Notes: a model not told the origin generated them from the sequence alone. Shown: positions 1 to 32,181, counted from the stretch's first letter. The stretch: 64,000 bases of DNA from an uncultured Planctomycetaceae bacterium (GCA_937952415.1 CALFYT010000069.1:439-64438); one strand, 5' to 3'. Numbers and translations are program-made.

Positions 1-662
1 CCCATCGTGGGCGACTCTTCCGAGCCCGGCACGTCGATCGTGGCCATGCCCGAGTCCGGCGGCGTGCCGTCGCCCCAATCGATCATGAACGTATACGATT
101 CGCCGCCTTCGCCCTGCGGTGCGGCGAACTCTGGTTCGAACTGTCCGCCGTAGTCGGTAAATGTGCCGATATCGGTGATCGAGAGCAGCGCGCCTTCATC
201 GATCGTTTGGTCCGATGCGACCGTCAGCGAAAGTCCTTCGCCGTACTCGTCGCCAACTGGAGCCAACTCTTCGGAACCCGTTTCAGCGGTCGACTGGGTG
301 GTAGGCGGATCGCCAACGAACGTGCTCACTTCGCTATCGATGTCGGAAAGCTCTTCCGGTTCGGCCGCCGCGGTGGGAGCAGCAGCGCCTGGTTCTTGCG
401 CCGGCGGTGGCTCTGCTGTGCCAGCATCGGCGCTACCCGACTCGCCCGGTTCCAGGCCAAGCGCGGTGCCCTCGGCCAGTCCGGTGAGCACGACGGGCGC
501 GATGACCACGGCGCCGGGACTAACCGACAGCACGCGACGCTGTTCGAGCTGCCGGACGAAGAAGGGGACGTCGCCGTGCCGTTCGCCGCGAGTTGGTTCC
601 GGCAACCTCCAATTCCGGCAGACCGCATCCCAGACTCTGGTGAGTCGCCACGGCCGTCGCAT
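1..662 (-). CDS. Large secreted/surface protein, N-terminal part (partial, continues past left edge); PKD-like motif
   Basis: Absent from the ORF track because it has no stop in the window. Manual minus-strand translation from the ATG at 662 stays open to position 1. It reads MRRPWRLTRVW..FFVRQLEQRRVLSVSPGAVV, then an acidic/Pro-rich linker, then ..ESYTFMIDWGDGTPPDSGMATIDVPG. The LEQRRVLS-type N-terminal motif and the WGDGT motif resemble large planctomycetal adhesin-like proteins. Confidence 0.55.
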   Translation of the reverse strand, partial: MRRPWRLTRVWDAVCRNWRLPEPTRGERHGDVPFFVRQLEQRRVLSVSPGAVVIAPVVLTGLAEGTALGLEPGESGSADAGTAEPPPAQEPGAAAPTAAAEPEELSDIDSEVSTFVGDPPTTQSTAETGSEELAPVGDEYGEGLSLTVASDQTIDEGALLSITDIGTFTDYGGQFEPEFAAPQGEGGESYTFMIDWGDGTPPDSGMATIDVPGSEESPTM

Positions 663-928: not shown

Positions 929-2407
929 ATGCGACATCTCGCGGCGCTGGTCATTCTGACGATCTGTTGGTCCGCATCGGGCTGTGCCACGGCCTTGCAG
1001 GGGGTCGCGCTGATTGGCGGCGCGCAGCCCGCCGCGCGGCAAACCACCCTGTCGGACTTCGGGCGCGTGGTCCAAAACTATTCGCCTGTGGGATCCGGGC
1101 AAGTGGCCACGGCAACCAGCGGCGCCGCTCAAGTGCTTGCTCCGTACGACGATTCGTCCGCCGCCGACGCGGACGCCATGCCAATCACGATGGCCGGCGA
1201 CGAGCCGAACCGACTGGCACCGGTTGCTCCGATGCCGCCCGAACTGCCATTGGGCCAACATGCGGCCCCGACCGAATTAGCCGACGTTGCGCCTCCATGC
1301 AACGATCTGCTTGACGAAGGTGGACGTAGCGCACTCGACGATACGGAGCCAGCGCCGATCGCGCCAGGCCCGGAGGCACTAGCATCCACATCGGGCGACG
1401 AGGACTCATTGCCGGGCGAGATCGCGCCGCTGCCGGACGAACTAGCACCAGCAGCACCGCGGTCGTTGTTACCCCAGCGCGAGGTCGTGCTGGCAACCGA
1501 CGCGGTCGCCGCCCGCTCCAATGCCGAGTTGGGCATTGATGGCGTGGTCGCCGGGCAATACGAACATCCGGCCTATCCCGACGTGGCCGCCGAGCCCGAG
1601 GCTCCAGATGCCCCGGGACCAGATGCACTGGGTTTGGCTGGTGACGAGCCGCCGATCGAAAGAAACGTCGCGCCTCAAACGAGCCAAACGGCACAGCCGC
1701 ATCACAACGCACCCGCCGACGCAACGGCAAGTGCGCAATTGCCGCCTGTGCCAAAGGTCGGCTCAAGTGCGCCCGCTGGGACGTTTGTAGACGAAGCGCA
1801 GGTTCACGTCAGCGATGCGGACGAATACTCGCCGCAGGACAGCGCAATTCCGCTGCTGGCCGACCCGCGCTACATGACCGCAAACCAAGGTGAAGTGGTG
1901 CCGTCTCCGGCGCCAGTGCCCACATCGCCATTCAAGTCAGGTGGCGAAGACGAGGACGCCGACCGATTCGGTCGCCACCTGTCGGACGTCATGCTCGACA
2001 TCCGGCCGACCGAAGGCGTCATGCCAACCGACGTAGCGGCGGAAATCTTCGAGCAACAGGCGATCACCGATCCGCGACAAACCCACGAAGGGCCTGGCAT
2101 CCTCTGCTCGTACACGCCATGGACGATTTGTTTCCGTCCGCTGTACTTCGAAGAAGTGGCGTTGGAGCGCTACGGCGAGAAGCGCCGCTTCCTTCAGCCG
2201 GCTGCCTCGGGCGTGCAGTTCCTGAAGAACATCGCGCTGCTGCCCTACAAGATGCGCGTCCGGCCGCCCCGGTCGTGCGTCTGCTCGAACGGATTCAGCC
2301 GCATTGGCGATTGTCCGCCGCCCGGCTACGGAGAGTGTGTATGGCGCTGGGACGCGGCGATCATCGAGGCCGCGGCCGTTACCGGCTTCGTATTCATCCT
2401 GCCGTAG
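929..2407 (+). CDS. Hypothetical lipoprotein, acidic Pro/Ala-rich with a Cys-rich C-terminal domain
   Basis: ORF 908..2407. The internal ATG at 929 gives MRHLAALVILTICWSASGC, a signal peptide with a lipobox Cys. The low-complexity middle is followed by an ordered C-terminus (CSYTPWTICFRPLYFEEVALERYGEKRRFLQP..CVCSNGFSRIGDCPPPGYGECVW). Confidence 0.7.
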   Translation: MRHLAALVILTICWSASGCATALQGVALIGGAQPAARQTTLSDFGRVVQNYSPVGSGQVATATSGAAQVLAPYDDSSAADADAMPITMAGDEPNRLAPVAPMPPELPLGQHAAPTELADVAPPCNDLLDEGGRSALDDTEPAPIAPGPEALASTSGDEDSLPGEIAPLPDELAPAAPRSLLPQREVVLATDAVAARSNAELGIDGVVAGQYEHPAYPDVAAEPEAPDAPGPDALGLAGDEPPIERNVAPQTSQTAQPHHNAPADATASAQLPPVPKVGSSAPAGTFVDEAQVHVSDADEYSPQDSAIPLLADPRYMTANQGEVVPSPAPVPTSPFKSGGEDEDADRFGRHLSDVMLDIRPTEGVMPTDVAAEIFEQQAITDPRQTHEGPGILCSYTPWTICFRPLYFEEVALERYGEKRRFLQPAASGVQFLKNIALLPYKMRVRPPRSCVCSNGFSRIGDCPPPGYGECVWRWDAAIIEAAAVTGFVFILP

Positions 2408-2433: not shown

Positions 2434-4647
2434 CTACTGGTTGAACGTCTGCTTTAACCAGCGCAAGAACTGAGCCCCCAGCGAACGCGGCGCAACGCTG
2501 ATCTTCGCCCGACCGTGAACGCGTGCCAGCGCGAGCTCTGGCCCCTCGTCGAAGCGCACTCGGGCCTGGTACCACGTGTCGAGCGGTCGTTGCAAGCCGT
2601 TCGGATCGCTCTCGGACGGAACGTCGCCGGCCGCGGCCAACGCGCGCGGCATGACGTCCAGATCGAGTTTGGCGACCTCGCTCACCTGCCCGGTGAAAAC
2701 CTGGCCCGGCAGATGGTCAAACATCATTCGCACCGGCTGGCCGGGCTCGACGAGTTCGACGTCGTTTTGCGCGACGTTGAGCATCGCTTCGAAGCGACTT
2801 GGATCGCCCACCAGACAGAGCAGCGTACCAGTTTCCAGGTAGCTGCCGAGATTGCGCGGATCCAGCGGCGTGCCCGACCAGTTCGGCAATTTGTCGGAAC
2901 GCGTTTCGTGCGAGACGGCCGGCGGCGGCAACACGGTTCCGTCGGTCGGTGCGACGAGCGTCAGCCGCGCCGCATCGGTTTTGAGCTGGGCGAGCCGCTT
3001 GTCCAAGTCCGCCAGGGCCTCGGTTGCCGCGGGGATGCGCGAGCCGTCATCTGTGCCTTGCAGACGCTGGGATTGGAGGTGCTCGAGGAACAGCCGCTGC
3101 CGATCGCGCTCGGAAGTTAGTTGTTGCAGCTCGAGCTGGATGTCGCGGTTCTTCAGGTGGGCCAGCGGCTGTTGGCTGGTGACCTGCTCGCCGACCGAAA
3201 CGCACTCTTCCAACTGCCCGGGCACGGTGACGTAGACGCGCTGCGCGTCGCGATACTCCAAGACAAGCGGCGCGGACACGTCCGTCGGAAGCGGAAAGAA
3301 CGCGACAAACAGCAGCAGGACGATTCCGGCACCAGCCGTGACGCCCACGCGCAGCGGCACCATCCGACGTCGGCGAGTGGGATCCGAGGCCCACCGGGCC
3401 GTTTGTGTCACCGCCGGCGCCGCCATGCCGATCAGCGTAACGCCGGCCAGCACGACCACCAGCGGTTCCAAGTGGTACGGCCGCGCCATTAGGTTCAGCG
3501 CCCATAAGATGGCGATCACGACGAGCCAGCGATAGATTGTCGCAGTGACCCAATACACGACCAACAGCGGCTTTCGGCGCTGCGGTGCGTCATCGGGCCC
3601 GCGAAGGTCGAGCCCGAACAGGGCCCGCGCGAAAAACCGCCGTGCCGCGATCGACGCTTGTTCGCGCAGATTGGGCACTTCGATCAGGTCCGACAGGATG
3701 TAGTATCCGTCGTACCGCAGCAGTGGATTGCCGTTGAGCACGACCGTTCCCACCGAACAGATGAGCATGGTATTGAGACACAACGCGTTGAACGTACCTG
3801 GCCCGCTAAACCACCACAGAAACGTGCAGACCGAGGCCAGCAGCAGCTCGACGTAGATCCCCGCGGCCGAAACGGCGATCCGGCGCCACTTGCTCGGCAG
3901 CATCCAGGAATCCGAGACATTGCAGTACAGGCAGGGCGTAAACACCAGCAGCATCAGCCCGATTTCGTGGCAGTCGCCTCCGAAGCGCCGGCACACCAGG
4001 GCGTGCGCCAGTTCGTGCAAGACCTTGATACCGGCCAGCGCAATCAACAGCAGTGGCACGTTCGAGGCCGACAGGATCGCACCGATCGCCGGGAGCCGCG
4101 CAGTAAACGCATCGAATTGGACAACGACCAACAACAGCGCTGCCAGTGCGAGCAACAAACCAGCGGCAACGCAAACGGGCGAGAACGCCCAGCCGAACCA
4201 ACGCTCAAGCACGTCCAGCACACGCGCCGGATTGAAGCCGCGGAATCGAATTGCCAGGACCGCCAGCAGCGACTCATAGCGGCGCTTGCGACGCTGTTCG
4301 TCGCGCCGAGCCAGAAGCTCGCGACCCTGCTCTGCAGAATCGGCCAACAACAGGCCATAGCGGTGCAGTGTCGCCAGGAAGCCGTGAAGTTGTTGCTCGG
4401 TGACGCGCCGCGGACGTAGATTGTCTTCGACGCGGCGGCGCAGCTCGGCAAGACTGACATGGCCGTCGAGCATCTGCAAGACGGCATGTTCCTCGTCGCG
4501 CAAGTGAAAGTACTTTAGCGCCGCCGGATCCTTCACGGCCCAGTAGCGCTGCCCGGCATAGTGCTGCGCCCGAAACTCCAGGTCGGGCCGCGCACGCAGG
4601 CCCAAGGCGCGATCAGCCGCAGATTCGAGTGGGGGCGCGACCGTCAT
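2434..4647 (-). CDS. Peptidase M50 (site-2 protease) domain fused to a HlyD-type membrane-fusion domain
   Basis: ORF 2434..4686 begins with TTG. The ATG at 4647 (MTVAPPLES) lies 4 nt after the upstream stop. HELAH zinc motif in a TM helix (nt 4003-4017) and NPLLRYDGYY third-ligand motif (3700-3729). Several TM helices. The C-terminal half has a coiled coil plus barrel-sandwich sequence typical of HlyD adaptors. Confidence 0.88.
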   Translation of the reverse strand: MTVAPPLESAADRALGLRARPDLEFRAQHYAGQRYWAVKDPAALKYFHLRDEEHAVLQMLDGHVSLAELRRRVEDNLRPRRVTEQQLHGFLATLHRYGLLLADSAEQGRELLARRDEQRRKRRYESLLAVLAIRFRGFNPARVLDVLERWFGWAFSPVCVAAGLLLALAALLLVVVQFDAFTARLPAIGAILSASNVPLLLIALAGIKVLHELAHALVCRRFGGDCHEIGLMLLVFTPCLYCNVSDSWMLPSKWRRIAVSAAGIYVELLLASVCTFLWWFSGPGTFNALCLNTMLICSVGTVVLNGNPLLRYDGYYILSDLIEVPNLREQASIAARRFFARALFGLDLRGPDDAPQRRKPLLVVYWVTATIYRWLVVIAILWALNLMARPYHLEPLVVVLAGVTLIGMAAPAVTQTARWASDPTRRRRMVPLRVGVTAGAGIVLLLFVAFFPLPTDVSAPLVLEYRDAQRVYVTVPGQLEECVSVGEQVTSQQPLAHLKNRDIQLELQQLTSERDRQRLFLEHLQSQRLQGTDDGSRIPAATEALADLDKRLAQLKTDAARLTLVAPTDGTVLPPPAVSHETRSDKLPNWSGTPLDPRNLGSYLETGTLLCLVGDPSRFEAMLNVAQNDVELVEPGQPVRMMFDHLPGQVFTGQVSEVAKLDLDVMPRALAAAGDVPSESDPNGLQRPLDTWYQARVRFDEGPELALARVHGRAKISVAPRSLGAQFLRWLKQTFNQ

Positions 4648-4651
4648 GACC

Positions 4652-5539
4652 TTACTGCCGCGAGTCCTGCGGCGCCGCGTCGCCAATGGTCATCGATCCG
4701 TGCAGCCCGGGGCGAAGCGTTGATTCGGGGTTTTCGATTTCTGCCCAGATCCGTACCTGGCCGTTGAACGGATCGATTTCGGGACTGACGTACGTCACCG
4801 TGCCGAAGAACTGCGTTGGCTGGCCGTCGATGTCGACGGTCAGTGTCGCCTTGCGACCTTTCAAATCGCTCGGCGCGTCGTCCGCCTTGATCATTCCTTC
4901 GGCCCGCAGCCGATCAAGACGCAGCACGCGGAGGATGGTCTGGCCGGGTTCGACCCATTCGCCCTGGTGCCGATTCACCTCCGCGACGAAACCGGCCAGC
5001 GGCGAAACAATCTGGCGCTGGCGAATCGCGTGCTTCGCGCTGTCCACTTCAATCTGCTTGATCTCGCGGCCCGCTTGCGCCAATTCCAGCTCGAGCTGGG
5101 CTTGTTCGATCTCCAGTTCGGTCTTTTGCACGCTCAAGCGCAGACGGTCCAACTCGGATTGCGACACGCTTTGGGCGAACCGCCGCTCGGATTCGATGGC
5201 TCGGCGCAACTCGGCTTGCGCCACTTCGAGCGACTTGCGCGCGAAGCGGACCTTGACGTCGCTATCGGCCTCTTTGGCCGCGGCGATCAGTTCCATCTCA
5301 GTGCGGCGTTTGTCGAATTGAGCGTCGGCATCGTCGATCTGCGCGACCGCGGCACCGGATTCCACCATTTGACCCTCGCGCGCGATCACTTTGTCCAACA
5401 CACCCGCCTCGCGCGCTGGCACCTCAACTTGATCCAACAACTTGACCAATACCGACGGAACACGAATCTCTGCGGCAGCCAGCCCCGAAGCGGAAGCAAC
5501 GATCATCACCACGGCCAGTAGTCGAATCGTGCGTGTCAT
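4652..5539 (-). CDS. HlyD-family periplasmic adaptor (membrane fusion protein)
   Basis: ORF 4652..5620. The internal ATG at 5539 gives MTRTIRLLAVVMIVASASGLAAAE, a signal anchor, 5 nt after the upstream stop. Long coiled-coil segment (ELEIEQAQLELELAQAGREIKQIEVD) flanked by lipoyl/beta-barrel-like segments (IVSPLAGFVAEV, GMIKADD..ATLTVD). Confidence 0.88.
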   Translation of the reverse strand: MTRTIRLLAVVMIVASASGLAAAEIRVPSVLVKLLDQVEVPAREAGVLDKVIAREGQMVESGAAVAQIDDADAQFDKRRTEMELIAAAKEADSDVKVRFARKSLEVAQAELRRAIESERRFAQSVSQSELDRLRLSVQKTELEIEQAQLELELAQAGREIKQIEVDSAKHAIRQRQIVSPLAGFVAEVNRHQGEWVEPGQTILRVLRLDRLRAEGMIKADDAPSDLKGRKATLTVDIDGQPTQFFGTVTYVSPEIDPFNGQVRIWAEIENPESTLRPGLHGSMTIGDAAPQDSRQ

Positions 5540-5544
5540 CGCTG

Positions 5545-7563
5545 TTACCACCACCAATGGGTTTGTATGAACGCGAGCACTTCGTGGAACCACACATATC
5601 CCAGCGACCGCCGGCCGCAATGCACTTTTGCCAAGACGGTTGCGCCGGGCCGCAGTCCCGCGACGTTCGCCCTATCGAATTTTACGGTTACCAGCACGTT
5701 GGGGCTTGTCGTTTCGTCAACCTCGGATGCCAGCGCCACGTCGGACACGTGCCCCGAGTATTCGACGCCCGGCTCGCTGGCCAATGCAAACTTCACTGCC
5801 AGATCCGGGCTGATGGCGTCGCGCGCTTCGAGTAGATGGCCCGCACGGTCGTCCGGCACGTGCAGTTCGACAATCCACGGTCCGTCCAGATCGCCAACGG
5901 TCATCAAGGCCTGACCGCGTTCGACCGGGCGAGCTTCAAGCAGCTCGCGGAGGTTCCACGTCAAGATTTGGCCGCCGATTGGGCTGCGCAACTGCAGGTC
6001 CGCCTGCCGCGCTTCCAGCACGTCGTGCTGCTGCGAAAGTCCCTTGAGCAGCTCTTTGACCTCCTCGACTTCCGCGGTTAGCCGTTGCGCATCGCGATCA
6101 CGGGCTGTTTGATCCCGATTGTTCGCAAGCGACTCGGCTTGCAAGGCAGCCAGTTTCTTTTCAGCAGTTCGAATCTCACCGGCCACACGGCGCAGATCGA
6201 GATCAAGCTGCGGTTGTCGCAGCAAGACGAGCGCTTGATCGGCATCAACCGATCCACCGTGATCCACCAACAACCGATCGACGACGCCGTCATCCGAGGC
6301 GAAGACGTCGCGTCGAACGGCCGGCTGCAACTCGCCCTTGGCTCCCACGTCGAAGTCGGCGGGTATCAACGTCAGCCCGGCCACTGCAAGACAAATTGCA
6401 ACTAGCGCCAGTACGGTCTTGGGCAACTGCCGGGCTTCGGTCAGCCAGCCGATCCGTGCCAGAACACGCCCCACGCGCGCCAACGGCATGTGGCTGTGCG
6501 CAATCGAGTTTGCCAAGGCCAATCCGCCATGCTCGCCAACTTGGGCCAAACGTTCGCGAAGTTCTGCTTGCCGTCCTGGCGATTCGAACTGCTCGGCCAC
6601 CAGCGCGCCGACAATGTGGCTCGGCTGTTGAACCACGCCCGATGCGCTCTGACGTAGCGGAATGATCGCCAGCAATCGGGCATGCGATTCGTCGAGGTAG
6701 GCGTGCAGGGGCTGCTCAATTTGGCCGGGCAAGTCCTCGTCGCCATCGCAGTACCAGATCGGATCGCCGGTGGCCATGCACGGCCCGACCAGGCGTTCGA
6801 GTGTGCGGAGCAGCTTCGAGCGTCGGTCGATCGCGTCGACACCGCTAACGGCTACCGTGCGAAAGTTTCGCCCGCGGCGTTGCAGTACGGTAAGTCGGTC
6901 ACAGCCGACAACGCGCCGGCCTTCATTAGCGATGCGATACGCTGTCGCCGCGGCGTCAAGATCGCGGTGAACGCGCAGGGCGAACTGATCGACCTGACCT
7001 CGGGCCGAATCGCGATCTCGCAGCCGGCTCAGCTCGCGCTGGCGGTGGAAATCGTCGGTCAGTTCGACCATCGCCTCGAGCAGACGCAGCAAGCCCTCGC
7101 GCTGGGCCGCGTTGAGCGGTTGTCGCTGTACCAACTCGATCACGCCGAAAGTGTGTTGGTTGATTCGAAACCGCTGGACGAACGCCCAGCCCGTTTCGCC
7201 CTGCTGTGCCTCGGTCGGCGAGCGGGCATTTTCGCGCAGCGCGATGCTCCGCGATTGCTCCTGGTGGAGGGTATCTTCGACCAGCACTTGATGGCTTGCT
7301 AGCAGCTCGCTGGCAGCGGCACTGGTCGAACGGATCAGTCCCGCCTGGTATTCGAGCCGCAGTTGCCCCGATTCGGCGGCGGTCCAGATTGCTCCGCCCG
7401 AAACGCCGGTCGCGGCAACGATTCGATCCAACAGCATCCGATAGAAGGCGACCTCCGACGGCGCGGAGCGGGCCGCAACCGAGAGCGCATCGAGCACATC
7501 CTCGATTTCGTGCCAGTCAGGATGGGACGGGCCGGAATCGACCCCAAGAGAATGGGAGCCCAT
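5545..7563 (-). CDS. Tandem GAF-like domains + TM + HlyD-type adaptor domain
   Basis: 672-aa ORF with ATG at 7563. The N-terminal ~370 aa are cytoplasmic and contain two GAF-like repeats (..GGAIWTAAESGQLRLEYQAG.. and ..RLTVLQRRGRNFRTVAVSGVD..). One TM helix (TVLALVAICLAVAGLTLIP). The rest is coiled coil plus beta-barrel adaptor sequence (LRSPIGGQILTW, ATVLAKVHCG). Confidence 0.82.
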   Translation of the reverse strand: MGSHSLGVDSGPSHPDWHEIEDVLDALSVAARSAPSEVAFYRMLLDRIVAATGVSGGAIWTAAESGQLRLEYQAGLIRSTSAAASELLASHQVLVEDTLHQEQSRSIALRENARSPTEAQQGETGWAFVQRFRINQHTFGVIELVQRQPLNAAQREGLLRLLEAMVELTDDFHRQRELSRLRDRDSARGQVDQFALRVHRDLDAAATAYRIANEGRRVVGCDRLTVLQRRGRNFRTVAVSGVDAIDRRSKLLRTLERLVGPCMATGDPIWYCDGDEDLPGQIEQPLHAYLDESHARLLAIIPLRQSASGVVQQPSHIVGALVAEQFESPGRQAELRERLAQVGEHGGLALANSIAHSHMPLARVGRVLARIGWLTEARQLPKTVLALVAICLAVAGLTLIPADFDVGAKGELQPAVRRDVFASDDGVVDRLLVDHGGSVDADQALVLLRQPQLDLDLRRVAGEIRTAEKKLAALQAESLANNRDQTARDRDAQRLTAEVEEVKELLKGLSQQHDVLEARQADLQLRSPIGGQILTWNLRELLEARPVERGQALMTVGDLDGPWIVELHVPDDRAGHLLEARDAISPDLAVKFALASEPGVEYSGHVSDVALASEVDETTSPNVLVTVKFDRANVAGLRPGATVLAKVHCGRRSLGYVWFHEVLAFIQTHWWW

Positions 7564-7893
7564 AGCGTTCGAGTATAGTCGATAAGCTGCGCAAAAACTG
7601 GTCGGCTCGGCGACCTTGCCAAGCGCATGTCAACGGCAACCGATTGGGGAAATCTTGACGATTGTAGTGAGAATTATGATGGGTTGGTCTGCGTTGCAGC
7701 CGATCTAGTAAAGCGAAGTGGGGGGCACCGTGCGGTAATTGCGCGCACGTTGCGCGCAGCCGCTTGACAGCGTCGACCAAAAAACTGCCCAAACCGTGCG
7801 ACCACAGCTAGCGGACCGATGCCGCCACCGGTGGGCCCGGCCAGCAGCTCGAACGATCCACGGATTTGGTGGGCTAATCGTCGTGCTTTCAAG

Positions 7894-10074
7894 ATGCTAA
7901 AACCCGGTGTACCCATCTCGCTGCTGCTCGCGACGTCGGTCGTTTTGTCCGGCTGTCTGGTGATCCATCCACCGTGCGAGGTTGATCCGGAGCAGGACTT
8001 CTACCGCACGGTCGCAACCACACCGATCGACACCGGCGGTGGCTGCGCGATGGAGCCCCTGCCACTTGCCACCGAGGCCCCGCTGACGATCGACGAAGAG
8101 TCGCCGCCGCCAGCTTGGGACCTGACGCAAGAACAAGTCATCCGGCTGGGCCTGGAAAACTCGAAGGTACTCCGTGATCTGGGCGGCAGCGTCCTGCGCA
8201 CGCCCCGGCTCGCACAAACAATTCACGATCCGGCCATTCAGGCCAGCGATCCGCGATTTGGCATGGAAGGGGCTCTGGCCGCCTTCGATGCGCAGGTATC
8301 CACCCGCCTGATGGCGTATCGTAACGACCGCGCGTTCAACAACTTGTTTCTGGGCGGCGGCACGTTCTTATTCCGCCAGGATCTGAACAATTTCGTCACG
8401 GAAGTCTCCAAGCAGACTGCCACCGGCGCATCGTACGCCGTCCGGCAGCGCATCGACTACGACGACAACAACGCGTTGGCCAACGTGTTTCGCAGCTATT
8501 TCAACGTCAATTTCGAGACGGAATTCCGCCAGCCGTTGCTGCAAGGAGCCGGTGTCGGATTCAACCGGATTGCCGGCCCCAACGGCGCCCCGGGCCAGGT
8601 CAACGGTGTTGTCATCGCGCGGATCAACAACGACATCAGCACGGCCGAATTCGAGCTGGCGCTGCGCGACTACATTAGCAACCTCGAAAACGCGTACTGG
8701 GATCTCTATTACGCGTATCGCGAACTGGATTCCCAGATCGCGGCCCGCGACGCCGCACTGAAAACCTGGCGAATCATCCAAGCCAACGTGCAGGAAGGGC
8801 GCGGCTACAGCAAGCTGCAAGAAGTTCAGGCCCTGGAACAATACTACCGCTTCCAGGAAGATGTGCTCGATGCCTTGGGCGGCCGGCGTGTCGAGCGAAC
8901 GCGCACCTACAACGGATCGAGCGGCGGCACGTTTCGCGGCGTGGGCGGCGTGCAAGCTGCTGAGCGGCGACTACGAATGTGGATGGGTGTGCCGATCAAT
9001 GACGGCAAGCTGATCCGCCCCACCGACGAGCCGCCCTCGGTTAAGATCGTCTACGACTGGCACCGCGTGGCAGAAGAAGCCTTGTCGCGCCGTCCGGAGT
9101 TGCGCCGCCAACAGGCTGCCGTCGAGCGCTCGAGCATGGAACTGGTCGCCAGCCGCAACTTCCTGCTACCACGGCTCGACATACTCGGGCTTTACCGTTG
9201 GCGCGGCTACGGTCACCGTTTGATCGGAGCCTGGGACCCCAACACGCCTTACGACAACGCGTTTGCCAGTTTGACCAGCGGGCAGTTCCAGGAATGGGAG
9301 CTCGGTTTTCAGTATGACATGCCGATCGGTTTCCGCCGCGAATACGCGGCCGTGCGCAACGCCCAATTCCGCGTTGCCCGCGAGCGTGCCATTCTCGAAG
9401 AGCAGGAACGACAAGCGATTCACGACCTGAGCGCGTCGATCGCCGAAGTAGCGCGGTCCTACGACGTGATGCAAGTCGGCTACAACCGGATGGTCGCTGC
9501 GCAGGATCAATACAGCCGAGCGTACGACGCCTTTTTCGAGTTGGGCGGCAAAGTGTCACTCGAACTCGTGCTCGACGCCCGACTCCGACTTGCCGACTCG
9601 GAAACCAGCTACCATCGGGCACGCATCGACTACGCGCTGTCACTGAAGAACGTTCACTACGAAAAGGGCTCGTTGCTCGACTACAACGGAGCCGTATTGG
9701 CCGACGGGCATTCGTGGCAGGGCGCGTCGGGTGACCTGGCGCGGAAGCGATTGCTCAAGGGCGAAGTGCCCGACATCAACTACGTGTTCGCGCGGCGCAA
9801 GAAGCAGCAGCACAACCCGTACGCGGATCTTCCGCAAGGCGACGTGACCGAATTGGGCGAGCCGGGCGGTGTGCAACTTCTACCCGATGGCGAGCCCGCC
9901 GGCGGTTTTCCGCCCGACGTCAGCATTCCCACACCGAGCGATCCGCCGCCCTGGTCGTCCGGCGACGATGTGCCGGTCCGGCGGTCGAACTGGACAGACA
10001 GCCAGGCGGCTTCCAGGTTGCCCGAGGGTTCACTTCCGCCGGAGCCGTCGCAGCAATTCACCGTCGGCGATTAA
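7894..10074 (+). CDS. TolC-family outer-membrane efflux lipoprotein with a Pro-rich C-terminal tail
   Basis: ORF 7819..10074. The ATG at 7894 gives MLKPGVPISLLLATSVVLSGC (lipobox). Two TolC/OEP repeats are recognisable (LENSKVLR.., AEFELALRDYISNLENAYWDLYYAYRELD, RPELRRQQAAVERSSMELVASRNFLLPRLD, AQDQYSRAYDAF). The last ~110 aa are Pro-rich and low-complexity. Confidence 0.85.
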   Translation: MLKPGVPISLLLATSVVLSGCLVIHPPCEVDPEQDFYRTVATTPIDTGGGCAMEPLPLATEAPLTIDEESPPPAWDLTQEQVIRLGLENSKVLRDLGGSVLRTPRLAQTIHDPAIQASDPRFGMEGALAAFDAQVSTRLMAYRNDRAFNNLFLGGGTFLFRQDLNNFVTEVSKQTATGASYAVRQRIDYDDNNALANVFRSYFNVNFETEFRQPLLQGAGVGFNRIAGPNGAPGQVNGVVIARINNDISTAEFELALRDYISNLENAYWDLYYAYRELDSQIAARDAALKTWRIIQANVQEGRGYSKLQEVQALEQYYRFQEDVLDALGGRRVERTRTYNGSSGGTFRGVGGVQAAERRLRMWMGVPINDGKLIRPTDEPPSVKIVYDWHRVAEEALSRRPELRRQQAAVERSSMELVASRNFLLPRLDILGLYRWRGYGHRLIGAWDPNTPYDNAFASLTSGQFQEWELGFQYDMPIGFRREYAAVRNAQFRVARERAILEEQERQAIHDLSASIAEVARSYDVMQVGYNRMVAAQDQYSRAYDAFFELGGKVSLELVLDARLRLADSETSYHRARIDYALSLKNVHYEKGSLLDYNGAVLADGHSWQGASGDLARKRLLKGEVPDINYVFARRKKQQHNPYADLPQGDVTELGEPGGVQLLPDGEPAGGFPPDVSIPTPSDPPPWSSGDDVPVRRSNWTDSQAASRLPEGSLPPEPSQQFTVGD

Positions 10075-10126
10075 TGTTGACTAGGACGCGTCGCTGGTGC
10101 GACAGACAGCGCTCCGGCTCGATCGG

Positions 10127-11044
10127 CTAGTGCCGGCGCCGGCGCACAGCGCACGCCAGCAGGAGTCCGCCCGCGGCCAACAGCCACACCGAGCTTGGTT
10201 CGGGCACGACGACCGGGATGACCATCAGGGTGTAGCTGCCCGTCTCGGCGTGAACGCCCAGAAAGTCTTCATCGTCGGCGCCGGTCACCGCCAGCAGAAC
10301 GCGTCCCAGGCCATCGGCCGTGCCCACGATCGTCGGCGTGCCGTCCTGGTCAGCGTCCAGCAACAAGTTGCTGGGCCCGCCGAACAGCCCGAGCCGGGCA
10401 TTGAACGTCAGGTCCGACAACAGCGCTGTAAACGCTTGATCGGGCGCAAGCCCCGAGAACAAGAAGAAGTCGACCGAATCACCGCTGCCGGGCCCGACGA
10501 TGTTTTGCACGGTAACCGTCACGGTGCCGCCGTTGCGCTCGGGCTCGGGTATGACCGGTGGATCGATCCAGATGTTGTCGACGAAGCCGGGCGTGACCGT
10601 CTCGAATTCGAGCGACAGCGTTTGGAAGAAAACGTCACTCGAGTCATACAGGTCGAATTGAACGTAGTACGCTCCGGACTGCGCGTGCGCGCCGATGAAA
10701 CTGGTGTCCGGAGCGCCGGTGACGCGGAAGTAGGCCGAGCCGTTGGGCTCGAGCGGCACGCCGACCAATTGACTGGCAAACCCATTACCCAGCGGGCTGC
10801 TATTGTCGTCGCTGATGTGCAACGTGCTGTAGGCCGGATCGTAGTGCCCCAGCAACGTGTTGGGTCGGCCCGCGTTGCCGTTGAGATCGTCGCTCACGAT
10901 CAGCAGGCCCGACGGCAAGATGGCCGCGGTGCCGACCGTGTTGTTCGGTTCGTAAATCGAAACCGCCTCGACGCGCGCAGCGACACCGCTCAGCATCAGC
11001 GCCAGCAACGCGATCAGGGTTCGTTTAATTCTGGAAAACAACAT
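10127..11044 (-). CDS. PEP-CTERM-anchored secreted protein with pre-peptidase-C-terminal-like beta-sandwich domains
   Basis: ORF 10127..11197. The ATG at 11044 gives a signal peptide, MLFSRIKRTLIALLALMLSGVAARVEA. YEPNNTVGTAA is an EPND-type motif. The C-terminus VVPEPSSVWLLAAGGLLLACAVRRRRH is a classical PEP-CTERM sorting signal (PEP motif, TM helix, Arg cluster). Confidence 0.85.
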   Translation of the reverse strand: MLFSRIKRTLIALLALMLSGVAARVEAVSIYEPNNTVGTAAILPSGLLIVSDDLNGNAGRPNTLLGHYDPAYSTLHISDDNSSPLGNGFASQLVGVPLEPNGSAYFRVTGAPDTSFIGAHAQSGAYYVQFDLYDSSDVFFQTLSLEFETVTPGFVDNIWIDPPVIPEPERNGGTVTVTVQNIVGPGSGDSVDFFLFSGLAPDQAFTALLSDLTFNARLGLFGGPSNLLLDADQDGTPTIVGTADGLGRVLLAVTGADDEDFLGVHAETGSYTLMVIPVVVPEPSSVWLLAAGGLLLACAVRRRRH

Positions 11045-11386
11045 AGTACGACGCGCAGTAAAAGGCGGATCCTTCGACCGTCGCGATCGTTGCGTTCGAG
11101 CGGCACAGTGCGCGCAGCGAAAACGCAACACGACAACGGAAGCAAGACTCGCGCGAGCCTTAACAGGGTGGAAAGAAGAGTCCGCGGAACAACACAAAGA
11201 GGTGTCGTTCCGTTGGGTGCGGGCTCTTAAGCGACGATCATTAGCAAGTTGGCGCTTGTGCGCGGGGACGGCCAGATCCTGCCATCGGGCAGGCGCGGTC
11301 CGTCCAGGATCGATCTAACGGTGACTCTAGCCACGTGCTGGCGTCGGGTCAAGCAGTTTTCAGAAACTTTGGCCTTTTTCGACCGT

Positions 11387-12169
11387 TTACGGCTGTTTGC
11401 CGCTCTCGGCAAAGGGGTCGTTGTCGGCGTCGCGGTGCCATTGGTACTCGGTCAGGTCGGCCAGCGACTCCGCGGCCTTCGTGCCGTAGAGGCGATCGAT
11501 TACGTGCAGGGCCATGTCGATGCCGGCCGACACGCCCGACGAAGTGACGCGATTGCCGTCGTCGACCCAACGGGCCTTGTAGACCCAATCGACGTTGGGA
11601 CCCTGGTCGACGGCGATCTGAAAGTAGCGCTTGTTCGACGTGGCGCGGCGGCCGTCGAGCAGCCCCGCCTTGGCCAAGATAGCCGAGCCCGAGCAAACCG
11701 ACATTACGATTTCCGCGCTTTCGGCCCGATCGCGCAGCCAGGTGAGCAGGGCCTCATTACGTAATTCGGCAAGCGTTCCGAAACCGCCGGGCACCATGAC
11801 CAGGTCCAACGGCGGACAGTCTTCGAAGCCATAGTCGGCATGCACTTTTGGTCCTTGTGTCGAAGCGACCGGTCCGGCTTTTTCAGCGACCATCACAATC
11901 TCAAGATGCTGTGGCAGGTTGCCGAACATCTCGGCCGGGCCGTACACGTCGAGCAGCTCGAAGCGCGGATAAAGCACGATGCCGAGCGTGCGCTTTCCTT
12001 TTTTTTTGGCCGCCGGCTTCGCATCGTCTGATGTGTCTGCTTTCGCTGTCGTGGCCGTTTCGTCGTCGCTCGCTTTTTCGGGCGGCGCACCCAAGGCGTT
12101 CATGTGCAACGCGGCCGTAATGAACAGACAACTGGCGAGCAAGACAGAATGCCGCAGTGAGAGTTTCAT
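11387..12169 (-). CDS. DJ-1/PfpI family protein (class I glutamine amidotransferase-like fold), secreted form
   Basis: ORF 11387..12337. The ATG at 12169 gives the signal peptide MKLSLRHSVLLASCLFITAALHMNALG. Nucleophile-elbow motif IVMSVCSGSAILAKAGLLDGRRAT, plus VTSSGVSAGIDMALHVI. Confidence 0.85.
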   Translation of the reverse strand: MKLSLRHSVLLASCLFITAALHMNALGAPPEKASDDETATTAKADTSDDAKPAAKKKGKRTLGIVLYPRFELLDVYGPAEMFGNLPQHLEIVMVAEKAGPVASTQGPKVHADYGFEDCPPLDLVMVPGGFGTLAELRNEALLTWLRDRAESAEIVMSVCSGSAILAKAGLLDGRRATSNKRYFQIAVDQGPNVDWVYKARWVDDGNRVTSSGVSAGIDMALHVIDRLYGTKAAESLADLTEYQWHRDADNDPFAESGKQP

Positions 12170-12400
12170 GATGCATCGCGCTCCCAGTTTTCGAGGATTG
12201 TCGAAATACGCGCCGAACGATTGCCGCACCGGGGCATGCGATCGTTCCGCCAGGCACCACATCGTAACACGGACGCGGTACGCCGTGCCAACGGTTCGTT
12301 GAGCAATACCTGACCAAGTTGAGCTAGGTTTCAGCATTGGCGCTCATCGCCGCGGGGCAGGGCACCTGGCTTGCCTGCGGCTCGCATGGCGAGATGCCGC

Positions 12401-13117
12401 CTACAACCCGTACACGACCGCCGCTCCGCACATAGCGATCGCGCCGCCGCACGCCGCATGGGCATACCGCTCGAGCGCACCGCGCGGGAATCGCGCCAGC
12501 CCGAGATAGCCGATCGCGACCATGACCAGCATCGTCGCCAAGGTGGTCAATCCGAACACCACGGCCACCGCCACGGAGCCTGCCAGGCTGACTTTGGCCG
12601 CAGGGTACATTAGCAGCGGGATCAGCGGTTCGCACGGGCCAAAGATGAAGATCAAAAACACGAGCCACGGCGTGACGATCGCCGAACTATCCTCCGACGC
12701 GTGGACATGAGCATGTTCGGCATCGTGCGTGTGCGTGTGGTAGTGGACGGTGCCGTCAGCGTGCGTATGCACATGGGCGTGCGGCCTGAGGCGCCATGCG
12801 CGGCGCACTCCCCACAGCATGTAGGCCAGTCCAAATCCGAAAAGCAGCCAACCCGCCACGTTGCCGCGAAACGCTTCGACGTTGACCAATCCGGCGACGG
12901 CCACTCCGATCGCCAGCCCGGCCAGTCCAAGCACAACCGAACTGGCAACGTGGCCGATGCCGCACGCCGTCGTGACGAGCATCGTCTTGCGCAGCGACCA
13001 GTTACCGGCGCGCGACAGCGCGATAAACGGCAAGAAATGATCGGGCCCCATCGCCGTATGAATCAAGCCGACTGTTGCGGCCGTGACGATCAGTGTATCG
13101 ATGGTTGTATCCGGCAA
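12401..13117 (-). CDS. NicO/RcnA-like nickel/cobalt transporter with a His-rich loop
   Basis: 238-aa polytopic membrane ORF with a TTG start at 13117 and no usable internal Met. Conserved HTAMGPDH motif in TM1. Central loop RLRPHAHVHTHADGTVHYHTHTHDAEHAHVHASED. Confidence 0.75.
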   Translation of the reverse strand: MPDTTIDTLIVTAATVGLIHTAMGPDHFLPFIALSRAGNWSLRKTMLVTTACGIGHVASSVVLGLAGLAIGVAVAGLVNVEAFRGNVAGWLLFGFGLAYMLWGVRRAWRLRPHAHVHTHADGTVHYHTHTHDAEHAHVHASEDSSAIVTPWLVFLIFIFGPCEPLIPLLMYPAAKVSLAGSVAVAVVFGLTTLATMLVMVAIGYLGLARFPRGALERYAHAACGGAIAMCGAAVVYGL

Positions 13118-18375: not shown

Positions 18376-19851
18376 CTAGCGCAACACGCGATCGGTCGGT
18401 TCGGTCGATGAGCTGGACCACCGCACGCCGCCGGCGGGAAGGGCCCGCTGCCGGCCGGAGGCCGGCTGCCGCGCTGCCGGAACTTGCAACGAGGTCAAAT
18501 GCCGCGCACTCTGTGCTTCGCGATCCGCCGCCAATTGGCGAAGGAACTCCGGAGAGGCCCGATCGAGGCGAATGACTTCGCTCGGAGCGTTTGTGTCGTC
18601 CAGCGATCGGACAATGCAAATCACTTCCGCGCCGTCGCCCTGGCCGCGCAGCTCGGCCAGCGTGGCTTGCTCGCGGGCCGTCATCAGCGCGGCGTTTGCG
18701 GTGGCGTGAGCCATCGATTCCGCTTCCGACGTTTCGGGCATCGCCACCAAGACGGAGGGCGACGGACGCGCCGCGTAGACCGCAGTTAGTCCGGACCCAT
18801 CGAGGTGGCTATGAATCGACTCCAATGCGGCGTACAGACCTTCGTTGTCGGCCGGATCGGCCGCGTTACAAACGCCGATGACGTGGCCGTCGGTCGTGAA
18901 TAGTCCGCCACCACTGCGCCCCTCGACCGGCAATCCGGCCACTTGCAGATTAGGCGGGCCCAGGAACTTGTTCTTCGAATTGATCTGGCTGTCGATGGCC
19001 GTCGGCGGACCACCGTTGTTGCAACCCACCGTAATTACCGCGTCGCCTTGGGCGATCGCGCGGCCCTTGGGCGCCACGGGCGCCACGTGAACCGGCACGC
19101 CTGGACGAATGCTGACCAGCCCGAGGTCGCGCTTCAGGTCATAGCCGACCAACCGGCCGGGCAACTGCTTGGGATCGTCTGGGCCGAGCATGTCGACCAG
19201 GATCGTTCCTTTGCCCTGCGATTCGCGAAAGATGTGGCCGCAGGTCAAAATCAGGGCTTCGCCCTGCCGTGCGTCGATCAACGTGCCGGTGCCGTACGAG
19301 GAACCGGTGGCGTCTTCGATCTTTAGCCGCACGCTGGCCCGGACCAATTGTTGCCGGGTGGTCGATTGTCCGCCGTTGGGTGCCGGGTTGTCGTAAGCGC
19401 TCGGGCCGGTCGGTTCGTGGGAAGGGCTCGGTAGAACGGCGGTTGCGGGTTCGTTGTGGGCCGTTTCGATCGTGCGCGTGCTGCCCGGGGTATAGGAGTC
19501 GGGCGATTGAGCGCGGGCAATGCTCGAAGACCGGCCGTGTGGTTCGACTCCGGCGTTTTTGAACATCGCCACGAGCCGGTTCCGCCGCACCGCGCCAGTG
19601 ACGCGCGAAACTTCGCGCCCGTCAACCAGCAGCACGAAACTAGGAACCGATTGCACGTTGAAGCGGTCGGCCAAGGCCCGCTCGTGATCGATGTCTACCT
19701 TGCGCACCGGGTAGCCGGCACGCTGGAGCTGGGCGACAGTGCCTTCCATGGCGCGGCACGGCGCGCACCACGTAGCCTGAAAATCCAAGAGCACGGTATC
19801 ACTTGGTCCGGAGACAGCAAGGACCAAAGCGGCAATCTGCACTGAGACCAT
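18376..19851 (-). CDS. Thioredoxin domain fused to a trypsin-like (S1) serine protease domain
   Basis: 491-aa ORF with ATG at 19851. WCAPC redox motif (nt 19756-19770). The downstream protease domain has candidate triad residues H205 (LTCGHIF), D242 (KRDLGLV) and S313 (GRSGGGLF). About 140 aa at the C-terminus are unassigned. Confidence 0.85.
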   Translation of the reverse strand: MVSVQIAALVLAVSGPSDTVLLDFQATWCAPCRAMEGTVAQLQRAGYPVRKVDIDHERALADRFNVQSVPSFVLLVDGREVSRVTGAVRRNRLVAMFKNAGVEPHGRSSSIARAQSPDSYTPGSTRTIETAHNEPATAVLPSPSHEPTGPSAYDNPAPNGGQSTTRQQLVRASVRLKIEDATGSSYGTGTLIDARQGEALILTCGHIFRESQGKGTILVDMLGPDDPKQLPGRLVGYDLKRDLGLVSIRPGVPVHVAPVAPKGRAIAQGDAVITVGCNNGGPPTAIDSQINSKNKFLGPPNLQVAGLPVEGRSGGGLFTTDGHVIGVCNAADPADNEGLYAALESIHSHLDGSGLTAVYAARPSPSVLVAMPETSEAESMAHATANAALMTAREQATLAELRGQGDGAEVICIVRSLDDTNAPSEVIRLDRASPEFLRQLAADREAQSARHLTSLQVPAARQPASGRQRALPAGGVRWSSSSTEPTDRVLR

Positions 19852-30260: not shown

Positions 30261-30363
30261 CCGCGCCCAAAGTGGCCTGGACAGTCGTCCGAACGGCCCC
30301 AAAGTGCGCCGCCACAACCGGTTTCGTGCCGCGGGGGGTGGTGCATGAAGTGGTGGAAGTTTC

Positions 30364-30393
30364 TTGCCAGTCGCCCCACTGTCAAGGTATATT
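30364..30393 (+). promoter_or_regulatory. Candidate sigma-70-type promoter upstream of the PSCyt1-WD40 gene
   Basis: TTGCCA (30364-30369), 18 nt, TATATT (30388-30393), within the 408-bp non-coding gap. Implies a leader of roughly 270 nt. Confidence 0.25.
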
Positions 30394-32114: not shown

Positions 32115-32181
32115 GTTTAGTAACACGCAAAGTGCCGGCACCGGAGTCTGTGCTGGCCAATTTATCGAGCAGGAATTCGTC

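Follow-up and report, generated by a model that had tools for sequence, protein, structure and literature searches.

Type I and other tripartite exporters, among them HlyBD-TolC, CvaAB-TolC, MacAB-TolC and EmrAB-TolC, combine an ABC, RND or MFS component with one adaptor of lipoyl/beta-barrel/alpha-hairpin architecture and a TolC-family factor. In exporters of the colicin V or PCAT type, an N-terminal leader is removed during export by a peptidase domain, which is a cysteine peptidase of the C39 type and part of the ABC protein, and in TriABC-OpmH, which is driven by an RND pump, two distinct adaptors share a single TolC-docking ring. In the Eep/PptAB pheromone pathway of Enterococcus faecalis, covered in a review (PMC10202637), an S2P yields a peptide that is then exported. 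Protease and exporter are separate in this pathway, the exporter is an ABC protein, and neither an adaptor nor TolC is involved.

In 2015, Kamneva, Poudel and Ward described a locus related to type I secretion and associated with a secondary SecA_DEAD protein, which occurs in Planctomycetes among other phyla (PMC4452313). Its core is a trio of proteins with Peptidase_M50 and HlyD, HlyD and Biotin_lipoyl, and GAF and HlyD domains, respectively, sometimes with an OEP gene adjacent and without an ABC transporter; the authors suggested that the M50 protein serves as the element in the inner membrane and the SecA-like protein as the ATPase. Those loci had been seeded on the SecA_DEAD paralogue. We found no experimental follow-up in the literature, and neither transport nor cleavage has been demonstrated for any family member.

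The cluster analysed here lies at 2434-10074 of a 64-kb stretch of DNA from an uncultured Planctomycetaceae bacterium, hereafter the window, and encodes the same three proteins (Table 1). Three minus-strand genes, C, B and A, follow each other with gaps of 5 nt (C/B; stop 5545, start 5539) and 4 nt (B/A; stop 4652, start 4647), and a gene for a TolC-family lipoprotein diverges from them. ORF analysis and an independent gene caller run on the source contig returned the boundaries given in the preliminary description of this pump-less module, with products of 672, 295, 737 and 726 aa for C, B, A and TolC, and every kind of domain named there scores above its Pfam cut-off, so that the earlier observation is confirmed. 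Most of about 165 related loci have the C-B-A trio as well, again with gaps of 4-5 nt, so the arrangement is not a chance one. Neither a conserved small ORF nor a consensus sigma-70 site was found between the divergent start sites. The statement of the preliminary description that no member has been characterised experimentally appears correct, but bioinformatically the architecture was known from the 2015 study. Two things set the window apart from the loci described then: it contains no SecA_DEAD paralogue in 64 kb, and the lipoprotein, giant PKD-repeat protein and kinase-WD40 genes found in its clade were not described in that work.

Table 1. Features of the cluster and its surroundings, in window coordinates.
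Feature	Position	Strand	Description	Basis
Giant PKD/Ig-repeat protein gene, 5' part	1..662	-	220 codons, continues past window edge; candidate cargo	tblastn, gene caller
Conserved lipoprotein	929..2407	+	492 aa	Alignment A3, synteny
Protein A	2434..4647	-	737 aa; RRE/PqqD-like domain, 7-TM M50 core, adaptor	Pfam, NCBIfam, hydropathy, AF2, Foldseek
MFP (adaptor) half of A	2437..3282	-	Residues 456-737; lipoyl, beta-barrel, alpha-hairpin	Foldseek, profile vs PDB
NPLLRYDG motif of A	3706..3729	-	N307-G314; its Asp is the third zinc ligand in M50 proteases	Invariant in A1, A2
HELAH motif of A	4003..4017	-	H211-E212-L-A-H215, TM helix 2; zinc-binding/catalytic	Invariant in A1, A2
Putative RRE/PqqD-like winged-helix domain of A	4333..4605	-	About residues 15-105; predicted cytoplasmic	Sub-threshold hits, AF2
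Protein B	4652..5539	-	295 aa; ordinary periplasmic adaptor, N-terminal signal/anchor	Pfam, TIGR01730
Protein C	5545..7563	-	672 aa; cytoplasmic GAF region, one TM, periplasmic adaptor domain	Pfam, hydropathy
Divergent intergenic region	7564..7893	.	Between trio operon and TolC gene	No conserved small ORF, no consensus sigma-70 site
TolC-family outer-membrane factor	7894..10074	+	726 aa; LSGC lipobox, C-terminal tail rich in proline (about 130 aa)	OEP, gene caller
PEP-CTERM protein	10127..11044	-	305 aa; neighbour of TolC gene	PEP-CTERM 21.4 bits (cut-off 20.7); TIGR02595
ABC-2 permease	36702-37565		ABC_tran ATPase partner at 35636-36676	

Protein A is a fusion of an intramembrane protease and an adaptor. 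It matches Peptidase_M50 with 32.0 bits (cut-off 27.2), HlyD_D23 with 37.5 (30) and HlyD_3 with 29.7 (22.2). Hydropathy predicts seven TM helices, and together with the AF2 model (pLDDT 79.8) it places the N-terminus inside and the adaptor outside. The HELAH region aligns with the HExxH helix of MjS2P (PDB 3b4r) in a profile comparison. Residues H211-E212-x-x-H215, N305 and N307-P308-x-x-x-x-D313-G314 are invariant in both alignments of homologues (A1 and A2, 24 sequences each, identity down to 36%); the protease motifs are intact and show no degeneration in these alignments. The adaptor half, which passes the HlyD cut-offs as already noted and whose alpha-hairpin is formed by helices 501-530 and 538-560, retrieves MacA (3fpp, E 6e-13) as well as EmrA, MexA and AcrA with Foldseek, and MacA (3e-14) and HlyD (7sgr, 2e-4) by profile comparison with the PDB; TriABC-OpmH (6vej) is also among the profile hits.

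Over its N-terminal region, the family profile of protein A matches PqqD (3g2b, E 0.02, positions 27-101) and TfuB1 (E 0.99), Pfam PqqD is hit below threshold (E 0.08), PF05402 is precomputed on two homologues, and AF2 predicts three strands followed by three helices; each of these hits is weak, but together they are consistent with an RRE/PqqD-like domain. The same region falls within a much longer match, over residues 33-408, to the RRE-fused daptide proteases (NCBIfam daptide_HExxH, NF041824; E 5e-53, 180 bits against a 300-bit cut-off), and the YydH/LiaK family (NF058609) is matched as well. Judged from these profiles, the N-terminal 400 residues are homologous throughout to RRE-fused intramembrane RiPP leader peptidases, at a score below the family cut-off. 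Proteins of the daptide MpaP family are RRE-dependent intramembrane peptidases that remove the leader (10.1101/2023.03.08.531785). Like protein A, MpaP and YydH/LiaK begin with an RRE-like domain and continue with an M50 core, and the match is nearly full-length; unlike it, they have no adaptor part, and their exporters, in Gram-positive bacteria, are ABC proteins. In a further difference from those pathways, domain and small-ORF searches found neither a RiPP precursor peptide nor a modifying enzyme near this cluster. The relationship is a new point beyond the 2015 study, and because the protease half resembles such leader peptidases from end to end, it lends support to proteolysis-coupled export.

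Protein B is a free periplasmic adaptor that most loci keep between C and A; it matches HlyD_D23 (71.4 bits), HlyD_3 (68.5), Biotin_lipoyl (30.8) and TIGR01730 RND_mfp (102.7 bits, over a cut-off of 94.9). Protein C, the conserved first gene of the trio (HlyD_3, 36.7 bits), is anchored by a single TM helix (residues 384-402 by hydropathy) with its GAF region in the cytoplasm. It had been credited with several GAF domains; the GAF-adaptor combination is real, but Pfam detects just one, at residues 205-347 (6523-6951; 25-27 bits, cut-off 22.4).

No ABC, RND or MFS pump for the cluster was found in the 64-kb window, where only protein A and the separate ABC-2 permease exceed four predicted TM helices. 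The same holds for the family: among about 165 related planctomycete loci, polytopic neighbours are sporadic, a scan for ABC motifs returned five ABC-like ORFs, none in a conserved position and one of them an ABC-F translation factor, and no conserved ABC, RND or MFS neighbour emerged. The absence of a pump holds at this locus, but across the family a non-canonical ATPase recurs as a partner. This truncated SecA comprises SecA_DEAD, PP_bind and NBD2, gives no SecA_SW hit and retains GEGKT and DEAD-type motifs. Among the 31 sister-clade loci with enough flank, 14 have its gene directly upstream of the trio, and in this sister clade DUF3467 and BBP7 barrel genes also flank the trio. Of 82 genome loci, 10 have the SecA-like gene within 10 kb, and its occurrences are spread over at least five subclades of the protein A tree. 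In the window's own clade it is nearby in one of about 13 loci (L003), there beside the TolC gene, and no SecA-like gene is present in the window or the contig's other 3.7 kb. Its recurrence beside the trio implies that the energiser of this cluster may simply be encoded elsewhere.

The window's clade keeps the TolC gene, the lipoprotein gene at 929-2407 and the giant PKD protein gene. The TolC protein (OEP, 82 bits over two repeats; the lipobox is present if the start is at 7894) adjoins the trio throughout this clade. The lipoprotein is novel. It consists of a lipobox, a variable acidic and proline-rich linker, a C-terminal domain of about 170 aa that is conserved and carries the motifs TPWTIC-RPLYFEE-LERYG ... 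PPRSC-CSNGFS (alignment A3) and a terminal hydrophobic helix; it has 54 homologues, no hit in Pfam or NCBIfam, and a poor AF2 model (pLDDT 60). Its gene co-occurs with the OEP gene solely in this clade and still adjoins it in the rearranged loci L038 and L077, so that it resembles a component more than a cargo and probably represents the fifth one, associated with the TolC protein.

Both substrates proposed earlier, the lipoprotein and the PEP-CTERM protein, are indeed syntenic, but their signals are of the ordinary Sec type. PEP-CTERM homologues (VPEPS, TM helix, Arg tail) occupy the equivalent position in L001, L085, L086 and L087; in L003 and L056 this synteny is lost. A better candidate, missed earlier, is the giant PKD protein, whose sequence begins with a predicted non-Sec leader, MRR..W..(about 30 aa)..LEQRRVLS (motif at 528-548). 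The gene caller likewise places the start at 662, and tblastn links the protein to the giant proteins of L001 and L056. Orthologues of 1272-1679 aa come after the lipoprotein gene in L001, L003, L056, L085, L086 and L087, and L-E-x-R-R-V-L is invariant in seven orthologues; the window's protein does not match PF07595. A protein bearing LExRxLL is nearby in only 2 of 80 sister-clade loci, which makes the cargo link weak outside the window's clade, and synteny within the clade may reflect shared ancestry only.

Our best explanation, held tentatively, is that the cluster encodes a protein exporter of type-I-like design that cleaves off leaders and draws on a motor, probably SecA-like, encoded elsewhere. 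Such an envelope-spanning machine would export a polypeptide in a single step and remove its leader en route. The RRE-like domain of A would bind the substrate leader in the cytoplasm, the M50 site near the cytoplasmic membrane face would cut it off, and the TM bundle of A, probably oligomeric, would form the inner-membrane passage. The adaptors of A, B and C could together form a mixed ring for docking of the TolC channel, with the GAF region of C gating or regulating the machine and the lipoprotein as a TolC-associated accessory. Energy would come from the truncated secondary SecA, here encoded beyond the contig, rather than from an ABC, RND or MFS protein, and the most likely cargo would be the giant PKD-repeat surface protein encoded next to the cluster, which carries the LExRRVL leader. 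TriABC-OpmH offers a multi-adaptor precedent, with two adaptors rather than three; the three different adaptors and likely SecA-like motor distinguish the cluster from known tripartite systems, and the fusion of an intramembrane M50 protease to an adaptor distinguishes it from both PCAT and Eep/PptAB. Counting against this model are the absence of a SecA-like gene from the contig, the sub-threshold RRE hits, the low daptide score and the weak cargo link outside the clade; nor do we know of any S2P that acts as a translocation pore.

It is unlikely, but conceivable, that no motor is needed. S2P enzymes (family M50) cut TM helices, and adaptor/TolC ducts can accept periplasmic cargo, as in MacB-type systems. 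A substrate inserted by Sec/YidC could then have its TM anchor cut by the M50 site, and its freed periplasmic part could leave through the adaptor cage and TolC, with cleavage itself supplying directionality; this was the first reading in the preliminary description. Candidates would be the PEP-CTERM protein, which ends in a TM helix and an Arg-rich tail, or the lipoprotein, which ends in a hydrophobic helix; both are syntenic in the closest relatives, and neither the window nor most loci of its clade contain an energiser. However, the cytoplasmic RRE-like domain and the homology to leader peptidases whose precursors are cytoplasmic suggest that substrates are recognised in the cytoplasm, and the SecA-like partner keeps a preprotein-binding domain, which speaks for an unfolded chain pushed from that side. 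PEP-CTERM proteins, moreover, have a dedicated processing enzyme, exosortase, and their synteny breaks down as described, while the lipoprotein behaves like a component.

Two further readings are improbable. Signalling is the commonest role of S2P enzymes (PMC10202637), and the adaptor/TolC scaffold could sense the envelope or outer membrane and the GAF domain a cytoplasmic ligand, with the M50 site cleaving a membrane-bound regulator so as to alter transcription and nothing exported; the gene for a large Ser/Thr kinase-WD40 protein, which relatives keep at a distance of two genes, would fit. Yet no sigma/anti-sigma family recurs among the neighbours of the roughly 165 loci, three complete hairpin adaptors and a TolC channel are export hardware, protein A is closest to leader peptidases rather than to regulators of the RseP/SpoIVFB type, and the SecA-like partner has no obvious signalling role. 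Equally doubtful is that adaptors and TolC serve an unlinked ABC, RND or MFS transporter, with the M50 protease as an accessory maturation peptidase, the counterpart of C39 in peptidase-containing ABC exporters. Genes for OMFs, and occasionally those for adaptors, need not be linked to the genes of their pumps. For OEP genes this was noted in PMC4452313. The contig, too, is just 67.7 kb long. Against this, adaptor genes almost always adjoin their pump, yet no ABC, RND or MFS neighbour is conserved in the roughly 165 loci, which come from many lineages; the genes linked to the trio are instead SecA-like, DUF3467 and BBP7 genes. Least probable is a purely structural scaffold, such as an anchor or assembly platform for surface fibres in which the protease matures a subunit without free secretion: the giant neighbour is of adhesin/fibre type, the lipoprotein has two membrane-anchoring ends and the family is abundant, with many paralogues per genome in Planctomycetota, but this overlaps heavily with the export model since a fibre must still be exported.

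Proteolysis-coupled export remains the most economical reading, as proposed from an anatomy that proved right, with the partner ATPase, the novelty and the substrates corrected. The family is very large and has been known from comparative genomics since 2015, and its members are probably unusual machines that cleave proteins and export them.

The three minus-strand genes C (GAF-adaptor), B (plain adaptor) and A (M50 protease-adaptor fusion) form a tight operon with intergenic gaps of 5 and 4 nt, next to a TolC-family gene on the opposite strand. An independent gene caller run on the source contig (ENA ERZ869938, NODE_202, 67,741 bp) reproduced the gene lengths and agrees with the ORF positions that the preliminary description had assigned to the trio and TolC. 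The domains proposed there were also recovered, each above its own Pfam cut-off: Peptidase_M50 (32 bits against a cut-off of 27.2), HlyD_D23 and HlyD_3 in A; HlyD_D23, HlyD_3 and Biotin_lipoyl in B; and HlyD_3 and GAF in C, where a single GAF domain was detected instead of the several proposed. The adaptor portions of all three proteins, which had been singled out for checking, thus pass the HlyD HMM cut-offs.

Features of the window discussed in the text
Feature	Position	Strand	Remarks
Giant PKD-repeat protein gene, 5' end	1-662, runs off window edge	-	start 662 by gene caller
Sigma-70-like site	757-728		TTGACG-18-GATAAT (10/12 matches), just upstream of giant gene
Lipoprotein	929-2407	+	lipobox, variable acidic linker, conserved Cys-containing C-terminal domain, terminal hydrophobic helix
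A, M50-adaptor fusion	2434..4647	-	737 aa
Cys/His cluster of A	3922-3993		C219, C226-H227-E228, C239, C242; C-x6-CHE-x10-C-x2-C
B, plain adaptor	4652..5539	-	295 aa
C, GAF-adaptor	5545..7563	-	672 aa
TolC-family gene	7894 (or 7819) to 10074	+	OEP 82 bits, two repeats (Pfam)
PEP-CTERM protein	10127-11044	-	real start 11044; supported by homologues and gene caller
DJ-1/PfpI and DsbD_2-like membrane protein genes	11387-13117	-	next to PEP-CTERM gene
Thioredoxin domain fused to trypsin-like serine protease	18376-19851	-	491 aa
PSCyt1-WD40 protein, then PSCyt2/PSD1 (DUF1549/DUF1553) protein	30345-35493	+	589 and 1,132 aa, overlapping
ABC_tran ATPase	35636-36676		partner of ABC-2 permease
ABC-2 permease	36702-37565		most TM-rich window ORF besides A

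A carries the motifs of an M50 site-2 protease, HExxH in a transmembrane helix and NxxPxxxxDG supplying the third zinc ligand. In two alignments of 24 sequences each, extending down to 36% identity, neither its HELAH nor its NPLLRYDG motif varies, so that the motifs are not degenerate across orthologues, and judged from these residues the protease site is intact. Hydropathy and an AlphaFold model (pLDDT 79.8) agree on a topology in which the first ~150 residues are cytoplasmic and are followed by seven transmembrane helices and a periplasmic adaptor domain. In Foldseek searches, the C-terminal half groups with MacA, EmrA, MexA and AcrA, alpha-hairpin included; the PDB entries in the Foldseek results also include the TolC-binding lipoprotein YbjP. 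Direct sequence searches of the PDB gave no match for A or for the GAF region of C. An anti-phage defence role was discarded, none of the five proteins having a PADLOC match. A (near-)invariant Cys/His cluster, found family-wide, sits on the beta-hairpin that directly follows the HExxH helix; it may bind a further metal ion or act as a redox switch. One homologue, 49% identical to A (protein P0058, locus L088), is an orphan: B, C and TolC are all missing from its surroundings, and its neighbours are a PIN/DUF2281 pair and genes for AddAB-like helicase-nucleases.

The closest family relationship of A is to leader peptidases. Residues 33-408 match NF041824, the daptide intramembrane metalloprotease model, over profile positions 15-366 of 379 (180.5 bits, E 5e-53), and also match the YydH/LiaK model of NCBIfam. 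The NF041824 score lies below the equivalog cut-off of 300 bits, and by sequence A is a relative, not a member, of the daptide RRE-S2P leader peptidase family. Signals of a putative PqqD-like RRE domain are weak but in the right place (PqqD, E 0.08, sub-threshold in Pfam; family profile against 3g2b, E 0.02); PF05402 is present on two homologues, and the putative RRE region has a beta3-alpha3 topology in the AF2 model. Whereas daptide systems have precursor peptides and Dmp-forming enzymes co-located with the peptidase, neither was found near the cluster. A RiPP-like precursor was also sought by clustering the intergenic ORFs of 25-120 aa from 83 loci; only DUF3467 and its antisense shadows recur, and none of these is in the window.

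No ABC, RND or MFS transporter is encoded with the adaptors in the 64-kb window, as the preliminary description had noted, the sole ABC genes being the ABC-2 permease/ATPase pair. We collected related loci from one-genome-per-species contigs (80 loci, exclusively Planctomycetota, a single genome often contributing several paralogues), by exact-protein look-ups (9 loci) and from sister-clade metagenomes (80 loci). The family of A is very large: it counts 4,103 representative clusters at the 50%-identity level (E < 1e-30), and a planctomycete genome carries several of its paralogues. The C-B-A trio is kept in most of the ~165 loci. A Walker-A/ABC-signature scan of these loci combined with transmembrane-helix counts revealed no conserved hidden pump: five ABC-like ORFs were found in all, none at a conserved position, that of L040 being an ABC-F factor, and other polytopic neighbours are sporadic. 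A 9-TM protein of L054 is, by eye, a candidate transglutaminase-like protein. With no conserved ABC, RND or MFS neighbour, the preliminary description's first reservation, that homologous clusters might be linked to a pump, therefore does not apply. A conventional pump encoded at an unlinked position would supply the missing engine to the adaptors and TolC, and we regard it as highly improbable. Elsewhere, the window encodes a thioredoxin-serine protease fusion and the PSCyt1-WD40 and PSCyt2/PSD1 proteins, a typical planctomycete pair.

The preliminary description regarded the architecture as experimentally uncharacterized. This appears correct, the searched literature offering no experimental follow-up and only one comparative-genomics paper. 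In that paper, Kamneva, Poudel and Ward (PLoS One 2015, PMC4452313) had already described these three proteins at loci centred on a secondary SecA_DEAD protein, in some cases accompanied by an OEP gene. They proposed that the SecA paralogue is the ATPase and the M50 protein the inner-membrane element, and noted that partners may be encoded elsewhere. The trio also occurs in phyla without the planctomycete export signal. A 2023 review of S2P proteases (PMC10202637) makes no mention of HlyD. The cluster is of a kind noticed by comparative genomics and never characterized.

Our analysis recovered the SecA association independently of that report. The paralogue (~650 aa) comprises SecA_DEAD, PP_bind and the second NBD, has no SecA_SW match and ends in a conserved C-terminal DPYLD. 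It lies within 10 kb of the trio in 10 of 82 genome loci, and among the 31 sister-clade loci with enough flank there are 14 in which it immediately precedes C. On a neighbour-joining tree of A, the loci with this paralogue are spread across five or more subclades; inside the window's own clade, it adjoins the TolC gene in L003. Two further families accompany the trio. One is a DUF3467 protein (~110 aa, Pfam E 2.5e-20); no other small ORF is conserved beside the trio. It immediately follows A in 30 of the 62 sister-clade loci with enough flank (~30 of L090-L169) and in L018, L029, L034 and L043, and could be a chaperone/adaptor or cargo. The other, a BBP7-family outer-membrane beta-barrel (Pfam E 1e-98), often precedes the SecA paralogue in the sister clade, where it occurs in place of an adjacent TolC (loci with this barrel include L021, L029, L034, L075, L090, L094 and L100). 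The window contains no SecA paralogue (tblastn, no match), DUF3467 or BBP7 gene, and the source contig ends 2.8 kb beyond A. The M50+HlyD, HlyD+Biotin_lipoyl and GAF+HlyD proteins are encoded together as in the loci described in 2015; in contrast to these, the window represents a sub-variant with a TolC, lipoprotein and giant-protein neighbourhood and no adjacent SecA paralogue.

The cluster is real and non-random; its parts list and topology, intact catalytic site, adaptor folds with hairpins, tight operon, conservation across the family and lack of a conserved pump are established. In the mechanism we tentatively favour, a mixed adaptor ring would dock TolC, the RRE-like domain of A would bind a leader and the M50 site would cut this leader off on the cytoplasmic side of the membrane. 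The motor would be a SecA-like ATPase whose gene lies elsewhere, pushing an unfolded chain across the inner membrane by a passage that A helps to form, with the GAF region of C regulating the machine. Release by anchor cleavage, which would require no motor and corresponds to the first reading of the preliminary description, is unlikely. Signalling by regulated proteolysis is very unlikely; no sigma or anti-sigma family recurs among the neighbours. That the assembly is a structural scaffold is barely plausible.

In the window's clade, the PEP-CTERM gene comes first and is followed by those for TolC, C, B, A, the lipoprotein, the giant PKD/Ig-repeat protein and a Ser/Thr kinase-WD40 protein of ~1,700 aa. 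L001, L085, L086 and L087 show the whole series; L003 and L056 have it minus the PEP-CTERM gene. The preliminary description had suggested the lipoprotein as a speculative substrate; because its gene stays beside the TolC gene even in the rearranged loci L038 and L077, we read it as a component, not as cargo. Its C-terminal domain has no match in Pfam or NCBIfam, and the predicted structure (pLDDT 60, pTM 0.29) was too poor for a fold search, also as regards a possible likeness to YbjP. At the PEP-CTERM gene, two long ORFs overlap on opposite strands (10097-11230, plus; 10127-11197, minus); the plus-strand ORF was rejected as a GC-rich shadow, homologues and the gene caller supporting only the minus-strand one. 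The conserved block reaches beyond the cluster, since in L085, a relative with 65% identity, synteny extends to the DJ-1/PfpI and DsbD_2-like genes. On the other side, at a position past the left edge of the window, L001, L003, L056 and L085-L087 have a Ser/Thr kinase-WD40 propeller fusion directly after the giant gene (~1,600-1,780 aa in L001/L002, L003 and L085-L087, for which a full-length product is reported). The two genes are probably co-transcribed, the gap or overlap being only a few nucleotides, and the kinase may regulate the system.

The giant protein, whose orthologues are 1,272-1,679 aa long, is a candidate cargo. A classical signal peptide is absent. The N-terminus is conserved and reads MRR..W.., followed by LEQRRVLS (528-548), of which L-E-x-R-R-V-L is invariant in seven orthologues. 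A planctomycete-specific N-terminal export signal, RRLxxExLExRxLLA (Pfam PF07595), is attributed to Studholme 2004. In Tuwongella, it is found on giant proteins of the envelope (PMC8567305), and the searched literature gives no export route for it. The leader resembles the core of this signal, the shared part being L-E-x-R-R-V-L only. PF07595 does not match the window protein (cut-off 25.5 bits) and scores 11.8-14.4 bits, also below the cut-off, on the clearer examples in L021 and L029; an HMM built from motif instances found no further cases. Large proteins with the canonical motif occur near other trio paralogues, and 6 of 11 adjoin the module directly against 20% expected (p 0.0125, uncorrected for relatedness). 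The association was not reproduced in frequency in the sister clade, where only 2 of 80 metagenome loci have an LExRxLL-type neighbour, so that a general enrichment was rejected and the association is kept only as a lead.

It is quite doubtful that the trio family is a dedicated secretion system for giant planctomycete surface proteins bearing a phylum-specific, non-Sec N-terminal signal (RRLxxExLExRxLLA and relatives such as LExRRVLS). If it were, it would amount to a new type of secretion system: the RRE-like domain of A would read the signal, the M50 site would remove it, and the truncated SecA paralogue would push the chain through a ring of three different adaptors to TolC or, in the sister clade, to the BBP7 barrel. 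The invariant LExRRVL on the syntenic giant protein of the window and six related loci, the canonical-motif proteins beside other trio paralogues and the lack of a described export route for the signal in the searched literature are compatible with this reading; against it stand the scarcity of such neighbours in the sister clade and the occurrence of the trio in phyla without the signal. Together with the missing Pfam match, these points lead us to regard the giant protein's role as cargo as a novel proposal, not as a finding.

Compared with a canonical tripartite exporter or type I secretion system, the cluster has the TolC-family factor and the adaptor and lacks a linked ABC, RND or MFS transporter. 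The proposed mechanism is functionally closest to type I secretion of the colicin V/PCAT kind, where the substrate loses its leader while it is exported; in the cluster, every inner-membrane part is replaced. To our knowledge, every characterized exporter that depends on TolC is driven by an ABC, RND or MFS engine, and the cluster differs from them further in its three adaptors and S2P fusion. In the trio family, the partner of the adaptors and TolC is instead an intramembrane protease, in many cases joined by a truncated SecA. This architecture would surprise a specialist, although the claim is tempered by the 2015 report and by the absence of the motor from the contig. If the trio exports proteins, it would represent a new way across the Gram-negative envelope, with leader cleavage and adaptor function merged in one polypeptide, and a testable candidate for how planctomycetes place giant surface proteins outside the cell.
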